64,000 nucleotides of DNA from Acidimicrobiales bacterium (GTDB lineage Bacteria > Actinomycetota > Acidimicrobiia > Acidimicrobiales > Aldehydirespiratoraceae): the NCBI GenBank assembly GCA_963422745.1, contig OY730477.1, positions 2,232,880-2,296,879 of the forward strand, given 5' to 3'. The position numbers and the translations under genes were made by a program. A model generated the notes under the pieces. It saw only the letters and a program-made list of their open reading frames with translations, did not search any database and was not told the origin of the DNA. Each line of letters opens with the position of its first letter. Position 1 is the stretch's first letter. Of this stretch, positions 7,628-12,004 are shown one piece after another.

Positions 7628-7673
7628 TTCGGTAGTTGTTATCGGCAGGATTCCGTAGTTGTTATCGGCAGGT
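7628..7673 (+). repeat. 23-bp tandem direct repeat (x2) at the left edge of cassette A
   Basis: ttcggtagttgttatcggcagga / ttccgtagttgttatcggcaggt. A related copy, cccgtagtttatacagg, lies at 11914..11930 at the right edge of the cassette. Confidence 0.8.
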
Positions 7674-7675
7674 TT

Positions 7676-7725
7676 GCCAGCGGGTGGAGTCCGGGTTATG
7701 GTGCAAGGTTCAGGGGGGACTTGAC
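7676..7725 (+). promoter_or_regulatory. conserved leader/promoter region upstream of the PLA2-lectin gene (copy A)
   Basis: gccagcgggtggagtccgggttatggtgcaaggttcaggggggacttgacATG is nearly identical to 54480..54534 and partly to 59590..59669. AGGGGGG is a likely SD 8-9 nt before the ATG. Confidence 0.35.
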
Positions 7726-9131
7726 ATGAAAAAGCGGTGGTCGGCGTGGGCGGTCGTTGTGGCCGTGTGCTTCGGGGTCGGGGCGTGGATGTACCTGCTG
7801 CGGAGTCTGCGATCGACACCGACTCAGACTCAGCCGCGACCGAAATCACCGTCACGGAGAGTGAGTCGGTTCCAGCTTCGGACAGAATCGACGGAACATC
7901 ACCCGGTCCGGTTCCTGAACCCAGTGTCACCCAGCGGCATGGCTGCCGGCACGGTGAAAGCCCGCAGCCGAATTACAACAATAGGTGTGTTCCCTGGCAT
8001 TGCCAATACGGGCGCACCAGCTACGGTACATGCGAACCGAAAGACCCTCGGTTTCGCTACCACACGTTAACGTGCAGTTCTTACAGCACCGACGCCGACG
8101 CGGCGGCCTACCTTGACATGGATCCCGACCACAAGAATGACCGGGCTGTCTGCCCGCCTCCTGGAATGTTCCTCGCAAGTCCCGGTACCGATGATTGGCC
8201 GGTATGGGGCTTCCAAGAGAACGTAGCGGATGACTACGGCAAGATAGTAGTCGAACAATCCGGTGAATGCAGCGGACCCAAAGACGACTGGGGTATCGAC
8301 TTTCCCGACACCGGCACCATAGCGATGGCTATAGGATTGGAGATAATCTTTCCGTGGGGTCTTGGGTCCATTCTGGCTTTCCTTGCCGAAAATAATGATG
8401 TGATATTGTGGGATTTCCAAATGCCCTGTAAGGCACATGATCACTGCTTTGACCTCATCAGGGCTGGTTTGTCGGGAACCGTGACAATCAACGACTGCGA
8501 CGATCGGATGCATGAACTAATGGAAGCAGATTACAACAATCGAAAATTCTTAGAGCCCAACCTCTGTAGTCTTGTCGGATCAGCGGTTTATGATGCAGTA
8601 AAGGCCTTTTCTAAAGCCGCCCCCGATCCCGGCCTCATCAGATTGGTAAATCCCCAGACCGGCTTATGCGCCGATATTGATCGCTCTGTGCTCCCGAATG
8701 GTCAACTATCGGACGGTGTCGCCGACGGTACTAAAGTGCTGCAATGGCCGTGCCGAACATCCAACGCGAACAATCAACAGTTCCGTTTGCGTCCAGCCAG
8801 TTTCCCGGGATTCTTTGAGATAGTGCCCGAACACTCCAGTCACCTTGACAAATGCATCACAGCCGTTGCAACCCTCTTTCTCACTACCTGTGACAGCGAA
8901 CCCAGCGGTTCAGGTGAACGGATCGGGTCATCTAGATTTCAGTCGTTCGAGGTTGTTTCTACCGGCATCGACAGATACACGATCAGCGGGAAAGAGTTCA
9001 GCGGGAAATGCTGGACAATACCTTCTATCGACACGTCGGTCATACCTAGAAGAGGGACTGGACTGACCAATGCAATCTGTTCCGATTCTTTCGAGGGCGC
9101 ATACCAAATATGGAGGATCGATAATGTCTAA
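7726..9131 (+). pseudogene. PLA2-like / ricin-B-lectin secreted protein, copy A. It is frameshifted between the signal peptide and the mature region.
   Basis: ATG 7726 encodes MKKRWSAWAVVVAVCFGVGAW (homologous to the signal peptides of copies B/C), but in the frame of track ORF 7636..8070. The homologous mature region (AAESAIDTDSD...PCKAHDHCFDLIRAG...QIWRIDNV*) is in the frame of ORF 7737..9131. The frame switch lies at about 7780..7800. Relative to B/C, copy A also has an insertion of about 30 aa before the HD motif and ADC->ADY. Confidence 0.55.
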
Positions 9132-9822
9132 ATCTAAACATATCATGATTGTGGCAAGCCTGCTCATCGCGGCATTCATTGCCTCGGCCTGCGGCTCGGC
9201 ATCCGAAATCGAGACCACAGCAGATGTGACAGCGACCACTACCAACAAAACCGTATCCCCAAGTACCAGTACGACCACGCTATCTACAGCCACTGCTACA
9301 CCATTGACCACTACCAGAGCATCTAATCCGAATAACACTCTTGCAGTCATCACCGACACCGCGCAGACTCCTATGTTACCGTTTGAGCTAGAAGATAAGT
9401 ATGCCACCAACTTGAATGATCGCTCAACTCCCCTCGGAATGCTGTGCTGGGCCTATTGGGAGATAGCCAGAATAGTTCTTATTAATAGTGCCGAAAATTT
9501 GGTTGACTACTTCCAGATATTTGATATGATATATCCAGTCGATTTTGACCACGATTATACGATTGTCAACGCTTTGGAGGAGATAACCAAACCCGAAGTT
9601 CTAGCCATCGTTAATGATCCCAAGCTGCCCGTAGAAGTTCAACTCTTCGCCAACAAATTCTTCGCAAATGCTGAGGCTTCACTTGAACAAGTGGAAGCTG
9701 TCGGACACGATCAAATAGATTTCACTAAATTGCCATACTCCAATTTGGAGCGTAACGTGGATGCATTTGAGAAAGTAGCCCGTGCGAATCCAGACGAATG
9801 CGTACTATACACACAGCAATAA
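9124..9822 (+). CDS. lipoprotein A1 (cassette lipoprotein family, unknown C-domain)
   Basis: MSKSKHIMIVASLLIAAFIASAC (lipobox IASAC), then a Thr-rich linker, then the conserved domain DRSTPLGMLCWAYWE...YPVDFDHDYTIVNALEEITKPEVLAIVNDPK. The ATG at 9124 overlaps the last 8 nt of the toxin-A ORF. Confidence 0.8.
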   Translation: MSKSKHIMIVASLLIAAFIASACGSASEIETTADVTATTTNKTVSPSTSTTTLSTATATPLTTTRASNPNNTLAVITDTAQTPMLPFELEDKYATNLNDRSTPLGMLCWAYWEIARIVLINSAENLVDYFQIFDMIYPVDFDHDYTIVNALEEITKPEVLAIVNDPKLPVEVQLFANKFFANAEASLEQVEAVGHDQIDFTKLPYSNLERNVDAFEKVARANPDECVLYTQQ

Positions 9823-9824
9823 CA

Positions 9825-10066
9825 CGAACTATTAATCTCCCACTCAATCATTCAATATCACCTCTGTCGCCGACAGTGATCGGAATATTTTCACAAGCAA
9901 GGCTCATGACAGAGCCTGCTGGGCAGTACCACCGATAAATGGGCCCGTCACACGCGGAGGAGGAACCTACATACCCGGAAGAGGAACCGGATTACTAGGA
10001 AAATATTGCACCGATGCCAATCCCGATCAATACCAAATATGGAGAATCGAAAATGCCAATTCATGA
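9825..10066 (+). pseudogene. orphan 3' fragment of a PLA2-lectin gene (last beta-trefoil subdomain, about 75 codons, no start)
   Basis: It reads TQSFNITSVADSDRNIFTSKAHDRACWAVPPINGPVTRGGGTYIPGRGTGLLGKYCTDANPDQYQIWRIENANS*, collinear with the C-terminus of copies B/C. It ends with the same overlap onto the next lipoprotein ATG. Confidence 0.8.
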
Positions 10067-10817: not shown

Positions 10818-10873
10818 ACCCCTGCCATCGATCAATGCTCCGCAATACAATCAGAAGCACGGCCACTGATAGT

Positions 10874-10994
10874 AAGACTTGTGGGAAGATACCTACAAGT
10901 GGAAAGTCAGTTACACCGCGCAGAGGAACCCGATTGGTTGATGCGCATTGTAAGACCAATGCTCCGGACCCATACCAAATATGGAGAATAAGAA
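10874..10994 (+). pseudogene. second, shorter orphan 3' fragment of a PLA2-lectin gene
   Basis: KTCGKIPTSGKSVTPRRGTRLVDAHCKTNAPDPYQIWRIRN aligns with toxin-A GKCWTIPSIDTSVIPRRGTGLTNAICSDSFEGAYQIWRIDN. It runs into the ATG of lipoprotein A3. Confidence 0.7.
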
Positions 10995-11708
10995 ATGTCG
11001 AAGACCAAGTGTATCAAGGTTCTCACGGGATTATTGATCATTGTACTCCTCAGCTCTGCCTGCGAATCAACCTCAAAGATGGAAGCGACACCAACAGTGT
11101 ACGGATCAAGTACCACTACGACGCTTGTGTCATCTCGGCCCATAACCACACCTACAGACGCGATTATCGATACCATTGCCACGATCACACTAACTCCCAC
11201 TATTACACTCCTGCCCTCTACCACGATTCAAGAAACCGGTGAGATTGAGCCTTTTGTGGTGGAAGCTTTTCTGGCTACCAATCAGAACGATCTTTCCACT
11301 CCACTCGGAACGTTGTGTTGGGCTATTTGGGAATGGATCAGAATGGAAGCAATACTCTTTACTACACGCATAGCTGAACAAATTCCGGGTGCTGAAGTGA
11401 TCTATCCAGCGAACTTTGATCACAACTATACCATCCTTGATGCTATAGAACAGATATCCAAACCAGAAATAGTCGGCATCGTAAACGACCCTAGACTATC
11501 CCAAGAACTCCAAGACTACGCCAAGGGCTTTTTTGCAGATTTCAAGTCTATGGTCGAGCAGACAAGGACAGTGGGGCATGCCAACGTAGACCACACCAAG
11601 TTTCCATACCCCGACTTCAACGATCTACCACACGCCGACGCCTTTGACAAGGCAGCTCTAGCCCACCCGAGCGAATGCATAGACCCATCAGAGGTACAGT
11701 CAGAATAA
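10995..11708 (+). CDS. lipoprotein A3 (cassette lipoprotein family)
   Basis: MSKTKCIKVLTGLLIIVLLSSAC (lipobox), a Thr-rich linker, then NDLSTPLGTLCWAIWEWIRME...YPANFDHNYTILDAIEQISKPEIVGIVNDPR. Confidence 0.85.
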   Translation: MSKTKCIKVLTGLLIIVLLSSACESTSKMEATPTVYGSSTTTTLVSSRPITTPTDAIIDTIATITLTPTITLLPSTTIQETGEIEPFVVEAFLATNQNDLSTPLGTLCWAIWEWIRMEAILFTTRIAEQIPGAEVIYPANFDHNYTILDAIEQISKPEIVGIVNDPRLSQELQDYAKGFFADFKSMVEQTRTVGHANVDHTKFPYPDFNDLPHADAFDKAALAHPSECIDPSEVQSE

Positions 11709-11728
11709 TGAGTCTGTCGTAAACACCC

Positions 11729-11911
11729 TTCGAGTCTATGATCGAACAAACGGAAGCGGTCGGAAATGACGAGGTTGATCACACCAAATTGCCATACCCA
11801 GGCTATGATTTACCTCACACCGATGCCTTGGAGCGGGCTTTACTCACTCACCCACATGAATGCCCAATTCCAGTGGACATAGGAACAGACGTGACGGGCG
11901 AAACACGCTGA
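11729..11911 (+). pseudogene. 3' fragment (60 codons) of a fourth cassette lipoprotein gene
   Basis: FESMIEQTEAVGNDEVDHTKLPYPGYDLPHTDALERALLTHPHECPIP... aligns with the A3 C-terminus FKSMVEQTRTVGHANVDHTKFPYPDFNDLPHADAFDKAALAHPSECIDP. There is no N-terminal part. Confidence 0.65.
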
Positions 11912-12004
11912 AGCCCGTAGTTTATACAGGCCTGACGCCGATTATCGGAGCTGCGCCAGTACCGACCGGCCCTGCTTTGATGACCTTGGAGCCGTAGGTT
12001 TCGA

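Follow-up and report, generated by a model that had tools for sequence, protein, structure and literature searches.

Phospholipase toxins that are paired with lipoprotein immunity proteins are known from pathogens using type VI or type VII secretion systems (T6SS, T7SS). The Tle phospholipase effectors of the T6SS are reportedly matched by Tli immunity proteins (Russell et al. 2013), which are periplasmic proteins or lipoproteins. In Staphylococcus aureus, the phospholipase A toxin TslA attacks a monoderm cell from the outer side of its membrane and is neutralised by the extracellular lipoprotein TilA (Garrett et al. 2023, PMC10730906), and in polymorphic toxins the Tox-PLA2 domain, a phospholipase A2 (PLA2), carries the motifs DxC[ST] and CxxHxxxYxN (Zhang et al. 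2012, PMC3482391). No such pair has been described for the Acidimicrobiia or for a PLA2-lectin fusion exported by the Sec pathway. The Acidimicrobiia are an abundant, mostly uncultured class of aquatic and sponge-associated bacteria. Here, we analysed 64,000 nucleotides from an Acidimicrobiales bacterium (GenBank assembly GCA_963422745.1, contig OY730477.1, positions 2,232,880 to 2,296,879 of the forward strand; hereafter the window), in which a gene for a predicted secreted PLA2-lectin protein followed by lipoprotein genes occurs at three sites, named cassettes A, B and C. Judging from the sequence, we consider it probable that these loci specify a contact-independent antibacterial toxin exported by Sec together with arrays of lipoprotein immunity proteins, and that cassette A is the oldest copy of this system.

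An earlier, sequence-only reading had described positions 7628–11932 as a cassette with a decaying toxin copy, three divergent lipoproteins and gene fragments. All of these elements are present at their coordinates, except that the toxin gene starts at the ATG at 7726 and not at 7728, and the fragments can now be identified as two toxin 3' ends and one lipoprotein 3' end. Cassette A and its flanks are laid out as follows.

6047–7627: acyltransferase-3 gene (Acyl_transf_3 with ankyrin insert; OafA/YrhL-like membrane protein), left flank of cassette A
7628–7725: leader of cassette A
7626–7671, + strand: 23-nucleotide tandem duplication, GATTCSGTAGTTGTTATCGGCAG twice, at the leader start and immediately after the acyltransferase stop codon
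7674–7702, + strand: sigma-70-like promoter TTGCCA-17-TATGGT, kept in the leaders of B and C
7713–7719, + strand: G-rich Shine-Dalgarno sequence before toxin A
7726–9131, + strand: toxin A gene, ATG at 7726, mature part in the frame of the open reading frame (ORF) 7737–9131
8317–8408, + strand: hydrophobic insertion of about 30 residues in toxin A, IAMAIGLEIIFPWGLGSILAFLAENNDVIL, just ahead of the catalytic WDFQxPCKAHDHCF
8532–8534, + strand: TAC (Tyr) in toxin A at the Cys243 position, which is Cys in 9 of 10 homologues (conserved ADCNNR)
9124–9822, + strand: lipoprotein A1, with lipobox IASAC, Thr-rich linker and a C-domain with CWAYWEIAR ... DEC
9832–10052, + strand: toxin 3' relic, the last ~73 codons, B/C-type (QSFNITSVADSDRNIFTSKAHDRACWAV...YQIWRIE), 84% nucleotide identity to toxin B
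10053–10817, + strand: lipoprotein A2, B4/C1-type (62–64% C-domain identity to that type)
10847–10994, + strand: toxin 3' relic, the last ~48 codons, L001-type (...TPRRGTRLVDAHCKTNAPDPYQIWRIRNV)
10995–11708, + strand: lipoprotein A3, C-domain 69–70% identical to both lipoproteins of locus L001 in another Acidimicrobiales genome
11729–11911, + strand: A4, 57-codon 3' fragment of a fourth lipoprotein gene, L001-type (76% nucleotide identity)
12005–12223, − strand: dehydrogenase stub covering only positions 1–39 of the 161 in the NAD_binding_2 profile, right edge of cassette A
12169–13485, − strand: P450 gene, right neighbour

Toxin and lipoprotein genes are tightly joined in this cassette. The ATG of A1 overlaps the stop codon of toxin A by 8 nucleotides, and the junction ACCAAATATGGAGxATxxxAAATG, at which a toxin end meets a lipoprotein start, occurs in three copies (9092–9126, 10021–10055 and 10963–10997). 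The GGAG serving the downstream lipoprotein gene sits inside the toxin codons for ...YQIWRI, and both toxin relics retain this Shine-Dalgarno and coupling junction, for A2 and A3 respectively. In the leader, the 23-nucleotide repeat gave 2 matches compared to 0.02 expected and has a single degenerate copy in the B and C leaders; a look-alike at 12156–12178 (70%) was not recovered at up to three mismatches and was treated as chance. Leader promoters of related loci read TTGACA-17-TATTGA in L002 and L003, with comparable TTGACA elements in L004 and L008. As an Rfam scan of the whole window matched no family, the leader corresponds to no known riboswitch or leader RNA. The G+C content is 47–53% in cassette A against about 60% around it, and the intervals at 8–12, 55–59 and 60–64 kb of the window drop to 47–55%.

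The same pairing recurs in other genomes. At all nine toxin loci (A, B, C, L001, L002, L003, L006, L008 and L011), a lipoprotein gene of this family lies directly downstream on the same strand, its start usually overlapping or closely following the toxin gene at the loci examined, and the pairing is kept from 100% down to about 30% toxin-domain identity. Even the distant PLA2-ricin protein of L011 is followed by an overlapping gene for a 190-residue lipoprotein with SLCWARWEIGR (hhalign probability 94%). Locus L001 carries two lipoprotein copies and lies between amidohydrolase genes; L003 likewise has two, separated by an insertion sequence (IS) element. This IS-type transposase ORF pair, at 12769–14005 of L003 from a Ca. 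Aldehydirespiratoraceae metagenome-assembled genome (MAG), was the sole mobile-element gene seen near any cassette. Three further loci, L008, L004 and L007, share the order methylmalonyl-CoA mutase, APH kinase, cassette, MeaB, and differ in what the cassette retains. L008 has the toxin and two lipoproteins; L004, with flanks 95% identical to those of L008, lacks 3.35 kb from toxin codon 16 through lipoprotein 1 and keeps lipoprotein 2 fused to the first 15 toxin codons; and L007 has both lipoproteins and no toxin. At L006, an intact lipoprotein goes with a toxin whose coding sequence is distributed over two frames. Lipoproteins thus outlive toxins at L004, L007 and L006, which is the behaviour of classical immunity genes. 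No clear pattern was found in the co-variation of toxin subtype with the first-position lipoprotein. In the 3.33-Mb genome that holds the window, a fourth toxin copy located elsewhere, P0004, ends in ...SRQLIPDMEDKKCLEP instead of ...YQIWRIxNV, which by eye resembles a frameshift immediately ahead of the conserved C-terminus, and the toxin P0005 is truncated to 274 residues; several toxin copies here are therefore damaged, with the lipoprotein genes intact.

The toxins consist of a signal peptide, a Cys-rich module, a divergent prokaryotic-PLA2-like domain and a ricin-type lectin. In toxin A these parts are a Sec signal peptide, MKKRWSAWAVVVAVCFGVGAW, in frame 0, an acidic linker, the Cys-rich module, the PLA2-like domain with CKAHDHCFDLIRAG and the ricin-type beta-trefoil; a Sec-type signal peptide is in frame in toxins B and C and in the homologues. 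The lectin scored 28.3–39.1 bits with RicinB_lectin_2 (PF14200) in toxins A, B and C, compared to a cutoff of 25.6. The AlphaFold2 model built for toxin C gave its last 170 residues (276–447) a predicted local distance difference test score (pLDDT) of mostly 70–88, and the modelled lectin matched the trefoils of HA33 and ricin B in Foldseek (E 2.5e-6 to 1e-5), HA33 and a mosquitocidal toxin being the top matches. A default Pfam search of the whole toxins returned the lectin alone and no PLA2. For the isolated PLA2-like domains, PF09056 was the top Pfam match in five of nine (best E 0.0028). A profile of the middle domain found the PLA2 of Streptomyces violaceoruber (1FAZ/1LWB) as its best match among 177,635 sequences of the PDB (E 0.045), in an alignment that covers C-x-x-H-D plus the downstream cysteines. 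When 1.84 billion representatives were searched exhaustively with the profile, 187 proteins were recovered at E ≤ 1e-3; 133 of these relatives were scanned, and PF09056 was matched at E ≤ 1e-3 by 95 of them (best 1.5e-14), RicinB by 58 and RHS repeats by two. The PLA2 motifs [D/E]xCS and CxxHDxx[F/Y] are present as GECSGP ... PCKAHDHCFDLIRAG, the residues H211, D212, C184, C208, C214 and C231 do not vary across 10 homologues, and C..HD..[YFW] occurs in 137 of 146 profile matches. The domain also has an N-terminal extension of about 90 residues. Based on the motifs, the best PDB match and the transitive profile evidence, the middle domain is predicted to be a divergent branch of the prokaryotic PLA2/Tox-PLA2 superfamily. 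The proposal of a PLA2-like toxin with a lectin, made in the earlier reading, thus stands, with the lectin passing Pfam and the PLA2 part reached through motifs, the best-in-PDB match and transitive profiles.

Among 5.8 billion proteins, the close toxin family accounts for just 10 clusters, and this 3.33-Mb genome contributes five; relatives come from MAGs of Acidimicrobiales and Ca. Aldehydirespiratoraceae, and the toxin profile found none in the JGI metagenome scans. Within the toxins, the last PLA2 helix and the lectin C-terminus are the variable segments, and the central catalytic domain is best conserved. Larger homologues (L002, L003, L008 and P0006–P0009) carry 3–10 tandem Cys-rich units of about 30 residues before the PLA2-like domain, with the consensus C-P-x-G-Q-x-Y-x-S-x-Y-G-G-C-R-P-x-x-C-x-x-G-R-T-S-T-G-x-C-R, compared to one unit in the window toxins. 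Two homologues end in fibronectin-III domains.

The partner lipoproteins each have a lipobox signal peptide, a Thr/Pro-rich linker and a C-domain of about 150 residues. Lipoboxes were read from the sequence of A1 (IASAC), A2 (LGSGC) and A3 (LSSAC), and likewise in B1–B3, C1–C3 and the homologues; the C-domain has two invariant cysteines and the motif N..RSTP.G.LCWA.WE..R. From the lipobox and the invariant cysteines, the proteins are predicted to be lipid-anchored and extracytoplasmic. The family forms 47 clusters, for which we found no Pfam family, no NCBIfam family and no PADLOC match, and the lipoprotein profile retrieved no relatives in the JGI metagenome scans. Submitting toxin C and A1–A3 to PADLOC, and toxin and lipoproteins to NCBIfam, likewise gave no matches. 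An AlphaFold2 model of the lipoprotein (pLDDT 87.8, predicted template modelling score 0.84) has mainly two long helices and a small sheet, and a Foldseek search of this confident model against the PDB found no structural neighbour (best E 1.1). According to the model, the C-domain would be a confidently predicted new fold with no family assignment. The domain also evolves fast: its ratio of nonsynonymous to synonymous substitution rates (dN/dS) is 0.59–1.12 among close paralogues, the near-identical pair B3/C3 (0.21) being the exception, compared to 0.17–0.31 for the PLA2-like domain and 0.18 for the neighbouring acyltransferase, a contrast that agrees with an immunity role.

Cassette A preserves a record of how such loci grow and decay. 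The toxin relic before A2 is of B/C-type and A2 itself of B4/C1-type; the relic before A3 is of L001-type, and A3 shares 70% identity with the L001 lipoproteins. As each internal toxin 3' relic matches the type of the lipoprotein that follows it, cassette A is best described as three stacked modules of toxin plus lipoprotein, of which the first alone retains a full-length toxin gene. In a relative, L009, the acyltransferase gene is 87% identical and is followed by only the first ~87 nucleotides of the toxin, after which the sequence resumes at window position 12118; it therefore lacks window positions ~7813–12117, essentially the whole of cassette A, and shares the dehydrogenase stub. The toxin remnant indicates that locus A was present in the common ancestor. 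Cassette presence thus varies between relatives, and the alternative raised with the first reading, an ancient conserved block with no presence/absence variation, does not describe this locus. Beyond the stub, L009 runs directly (11760–11765) into an AMP-binding ligase gene that corresponds to window 24304–25821 (95% identity). The 12259–24284 block with P450, CMD, SDR and sulfatase genes, absent at that position of L009, is accordingly accessory or rearranged.

Toxin A itself is altered. Compared to toxins B and C and that of L001, a 1-nucleotide deletion at ~7778/7779 puts its signal peptide out of frame with the mature toxin. The L009 remnant matches toxin A in spacing and frame, so the deletion is no assembly error and looks ancestral. 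Tyr replaces Cys243 in toxin A alone. The ~30-residue insertion is common to toxin A and the paralogue P0004, whose signal peptide is in frame, and is therefore a subtype feature and not a sign of decay. A −1 slippery heptamer that could rescue toxin A was sought by eye; the one candidate, G_AAA_AAG at codons 2–3, would remove the signal peptide and was discarded.

The other two cassettes of the window, B and C, are laid out as follows.

54462–59122, + strand: cassette B, with leader, toxin B (54535–55878), B1 (55865–56596), B2 (56643–57383) and B3 (57429–58172)
58257–58967, + strand: cassette B, continued, B4 (5' frameshift), followed by a B5 5' fragment at 59008–59122
59106–59669, + strand: mosaic scar between B and C, about 560 bp, after the B5 lipoprotein 5' end
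59670–63483, + strand: cassette C, with toxin C (59670–61022), C1 (61009–61746), C2 (61778–62506) and C3 (62558–63298)
63343–63483, + strand: cassette C, C4 5' fragment

ORF listing and repeat finding showed the same gene set at all three window sites, A being paralogous to B and C, and the repeats linking them are far beyond chance (a 300-nucleotide unit in nine copies, 62–94% identical to the reference copy). The claim that one module sits in different genomic contexts is thereby supported. The sequence-only reading had also held that A1–A3 are the most divergent lipoproteins, quoting the variants YPVDFDHDYT, YPADYDHEYT and YPANFDHNYT, which we found in A1, A2 and A3. Pairwise identities of the C-domains bear this out: A1 and A2 share 38%, A1 and A3 45%, and A2 and A3 39%, compared to 53–98% within B and C. 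Together with a synonymous divergence (dS) of ~1 between the A and B/C toxins, these identities also agree with its suggestion that locus A is older and more diverse. B2-B3-B4 are colinear with C2-C3-C4, and B3/C3, as well as the starts of B4 and C4, are 97–98% identical. The scar between the two cassettes contains two segments of the TPP-enzyme gene bordering B to the left (similar to 54064–54123 and 54381–54461), a copy of the right-hand flank of C (similar to 63481–63644; 78% identity), and the last ~160 bp of the acyltransferase with the locus A leader (similar to 7476–7778; 72–79%). As the scar carries relics of neighbouring host genes, segmental duplication and ectopic recombination are indicated. 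Toxins A and B further share a 98%-identical patch amid neighbouring sequence of 74–82% identity; the 3' parts of A are only 46–59% identical to B and C. An acyltransferase 3'-end relic accompanies cassette C (59419–59582). In B4 (58205–58260), the MPTLR start and the YILPGAVLIIALLGSGC signal peptide are separated by a frameshift that looks by eye like a single additional A, and the near-identical C4 fragment (63343–63483) is in frame at this site. Either B4 became a pseudogene recently, or its start is the GTG at 58257, with a stub signal peptide.

How might such a system work? The toxin would be exported by the Sec pathway, dock through its C-terminal ricin-type lectin on surface glycans of the target cell and attack membrane phospholipids from outside with its PLA2-like domain, as the Cys-x-x-His-Asp and Ca-loop motifs suggest. 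Because secreted phospholipases endanger a monoderm producer, self-protection is to be expected. It could be provided by the lipoproteins, whose genes are translationally coupled to the toxin gene. A lipid anchor and the Thr/Pro-rich stalk would tether them to the outer face of the cytoplasmic membrane, where the disulfide-bonded helical C-domain may bind and block the toxin, and several diverged copies could protect against the toxin variants of relatives. Cassette A, presumably the oldest of the three loci, has lost the in-frame signal peptide of its full-length first toxin, and its two toxin stubs may still supply the ribosome-binding junction for 'their' lipoproteins. Its main present role may be that of an orphan-immunity island expressed from the promoter in its leader. 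A further, doubtful possibility is that the Thr-rich stalk is glycosylated and is itself the ligand of the lectin, acting as a decoy receptor. A tie between the neighbouring acyltransferase-3 and the toxin, through glycan O-acetylation affecting lectin binding, is speculative.

Two other assignments of function have to be weighed. The lipoproteins could be membrane-anchored helpers and not inhibitors, either export or anchoring partners or steric chaperones of the kind represented by Lif, the foldase of Pseudomonas lipases. Tight operon linkage with translational coupling downstream of a secreted lipolytic enzyme and the membrane-tethered, extracytoplasmic position of the proteins would suit this role. 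A helper, however, should be present in a single copy and be lost together with its enzyme, and here we found one to four diverged copies per toxin, copies that survive deletion or disruption of the toxin (L004, L007, L006 and window cassette A) and a high lipoprotein dN/dS; we therefore regard a helper function as very unlikely. It is also unlikely, if slightly less so, that the PLA2-lectin is aimed at eukaryotes, either grazers or a host, or at nutrient acquisition, and that the lipoproteins are surface proteins that vary, for instance in antigenicity or as phage receptors, and are co-transcribed for unrelated reasons. The union of lectin and enzyme does resemble AB toxins, with HA33 and a mosquitocidal toxin as top fold matches, the Thr-rich stalks and rapid evolution would suit proteins exposed at the surface, and no specialised interbacterial secretion system lies nearby. 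Such an arrangement is difficult to reconcile with a pairing that is conserved to ~30% toxin-domain identity, the lipoprotein start always overlapping or adjacent, or with the self-protection expected of a monoderm that secretes a phospholipase, and the module-wise co-inheritance of toxin 3' end and lipoprotein is hard to explain without a functional link.

The origin of the cassettes likewise admits different views. The earlier reading had proposed a mobile or recombining unit, and its second half is supported by the flank relics. An autonomous mobile element inserted at the acyltransferase/dehydrogenase site would explain the low G+C content (47–53% vs 60%), the occurrence in at least three contexts of one genome and in different contexts in other genomes, and the truncated dehydrogenase gene at the right edge of cassette A. 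Mobility machinery of its own, however, did not come to light: we found no transposase, integrase or recombinase gene within cassettes A, B and C or beside them (7.6–12 kb and 54.4–63.5 kb), no tRNA gene in the window, no terminal inverted repeats or target-site duplications at the cassette edges, and no relatives on viral contigs or plasmids. The copies instead carry pieces of neighbouring host genes, as expected from segmental duplication or recombination, and an autonomous element thus appears highly improbable. Cassette A might, on the other hand, be a silent archive, in which the signal-less toxin ORF and the stubs donate sequence to B and C by gene conversion, swapping lectin end and immunity genes. 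This would account for an ORF that is open and shows no excess nonsynonymous divergence (dN) despite an apparently ancestral frameshift, for the 98% conversion-like patch between A and B, and for the concentration of variability in the last PLA2 helix and the lectin C-terminus. Selection for an archive would however be second-order and weak, a single conversion patch was seen, the relative L009 has deleted the locus, and the 3' parts of A, at 46–59% identity to B and C, are too dissimilar for efficient homologous exchange, all of which makes the archive quite unlikely. The data fit cassettes that spread by segmental duplication, ectopic recombination and gene conversion and that decay by deletion.

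Several observations weigh against the reading as toxin and immunity array. PF09056 remained below its gathering score for these proteins (15.4 bits for the toxin C domain vs 29.4), and the PLA2-like region of the AlphaFold2 model is of low confidence (pLDDT 40–72), with helices at 205–219, 228–244 and 248–265 around the motif. With its PLA2 part so poorly modelled, the toxin model found Foldseek matches through the lectin alone. The two toxin-less lipoproteins of L007, in their conserved housekeeping neighbourhood, would also fit a toxin-independent function, and tandem, fast-evolving lipoproteins could serve other roles. With respect to cassette A, the remaining 464 codons of toxin A are open despite the frameshift; in a neutral simulation, an ORF of this length escaped a stop codon in 0.9% of runs when 0.1 substitutions per site had accumulated, and in none at 0.2. 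Outgroup dN to A (0.298, 0.482) is also not above dN to B and C (0.325–0.329, 0.503). To call cassette A an orphan immunity island whose toxin is dead may thus be an oversimplification; the frameshift could be younger than L009 suggests, there could be residual expression, or gene conversion could maintain the ORF. The 'decaying toxin copy' described at first comes down to the 1-nucleotide frameshift, real and old, and the exchange of Cys243 for Tyr; the insertion does not count as decay, and there is no excess amino-acid change in the rest of the ORF.

Some features of the window lie outside the cassettes. Acyltransferase-3 homologues number 3804 at E ≤ 1e-30; this core gene is widespread in Acidimicrobiia, as is its architecture. 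On the − strand, an 836-residue ORF (21657–24167), part of the 12-kb block that L009 lacks at that position, starts with three tandem repeats of 89 residues (267 nucleotides; 23341–24141) that are 89–94% identical, have a G+C content of 53–55% and resemble the helix-hairpin-helix of the RNA-polymerase alpha-CTD type (ELPMRACNALRIAGIDSWEQIL...GIRNVG). At 32668–33062, 27-nucleotide tandem repeats (nine residues, GRELLADDx) form the C-terminal tail of a 455-residue ORF (32910–34277, − strand) and also make up most of the adjacent short ORF 32650–33072.

We found no published description of the toxin/lipoprotein family in the literature. Beyond the first reading, the analysis adds a likely toxin/immunity function and toxin stubs that are type-matched to the following lipoprotein. 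Cassette A is the decayed but most informative copy. The natural history is legible, from tandem duplication (B/C), flank relics and gene conversion to the stacking of stubs in A and loss in L009, and this record should be useful for annotating 'orphan' lipoprotein arrays in MAGs. Should the lipoprotein C-domain prove to inhibit PLA2, it would constitute a new inhibitor scaffold. A more far-reaching version, which we put forward as a doubtful possibility, is an undescribed bacteriocin-like system with a secreted, lectin-targeted PLA2 and new-fold lipoprotein inhibitors, in which the variable lectin end and the cognate immunity gene are inherited and exchanged as a module and stacked stubs like those of cassette A are both fossil record and donor archive of switches in specificity between loci.

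Compared to described systems, the cassettes share individual traits with several. Like the secreted PLA2 of S. violaceoruber (PF09056; PDB 1FAZ/1LWB/1KP4), the toxins are predicted secreted proteins of Actinomycetota in which the catalytic Cys-x-x-His-Asp and the Cys-containing helices align, whereas that enzyme is a single domain of 122 residues that lacks a lectin and for which no immunity partner has been described. The lectins of AB toxins (HA33, MTX and ricin B) are also beta-trefoils that are joined to a toxic enzyme and bind target glycans, but their targets are eukaryotic, while the lectin of the cassettes follows a PLA2-like enzyme as its C-terminal part and comes with immunity-like genes. 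Polymorphic toxins (CDI/Rhs/MafB) have truncated toxin 3' ends, each with its own immunity gene, arrayed after the full-length gene, and cassette A has the same orphan modules of toxin 3' fragment and immunity gene (three junctions, two type-matched relics). It lacks their conserved delivery region with a swappable C-terminal toxin tip, the PLA2-like domain being central and conserved (dN/dS 0.17–0.31); the stubs that were displaced represent lectin ends, neither a filamentous nor an RHS stalk is present, and the toxin presumably diffuses after Sec export.

The likeness is greater to dedicated phospholipase weapons. The Tle/Tli systems combine an antibacterial phospholipase with envelope immunity, often in multiple adjacent copies, and have orphan immunity genes in non-producers. 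They differ in that there is no T6SS in this monoderm actinomycetote and no VgrG or PAAR gene near the cassettes, that Tle1–5 are GXSXG or HXKXXXXD enzymes, unlike the window toxins, and that the immunity fold is a different one. TslA, a lipase of the alpha/beta-hydrolase type whose C-terminal domain is LXG-like, is exported by the T7SS with Tla partners, whereas here a PLA2-like enzyme with a lectin would leave by Sec; no LXG-like helical domain was found in the toxin and no small helical partner genes in the cassette. TilA belongs to DUF576, the Lpl/Csa tandem lipoproteins, to which the window lipoproteins, with their different predicted fold, do not, and the immunity genes lie downstream here and upstream there. 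What the two systems have in common are tandem, non-identical immunity arrays of variable number and several recombining paralogous loci per genome (PMC10730906). The window cassettes belong to none of the compared families, with Tle/Tli as a close counterpart and TslA/TilA as the closest working analogue.

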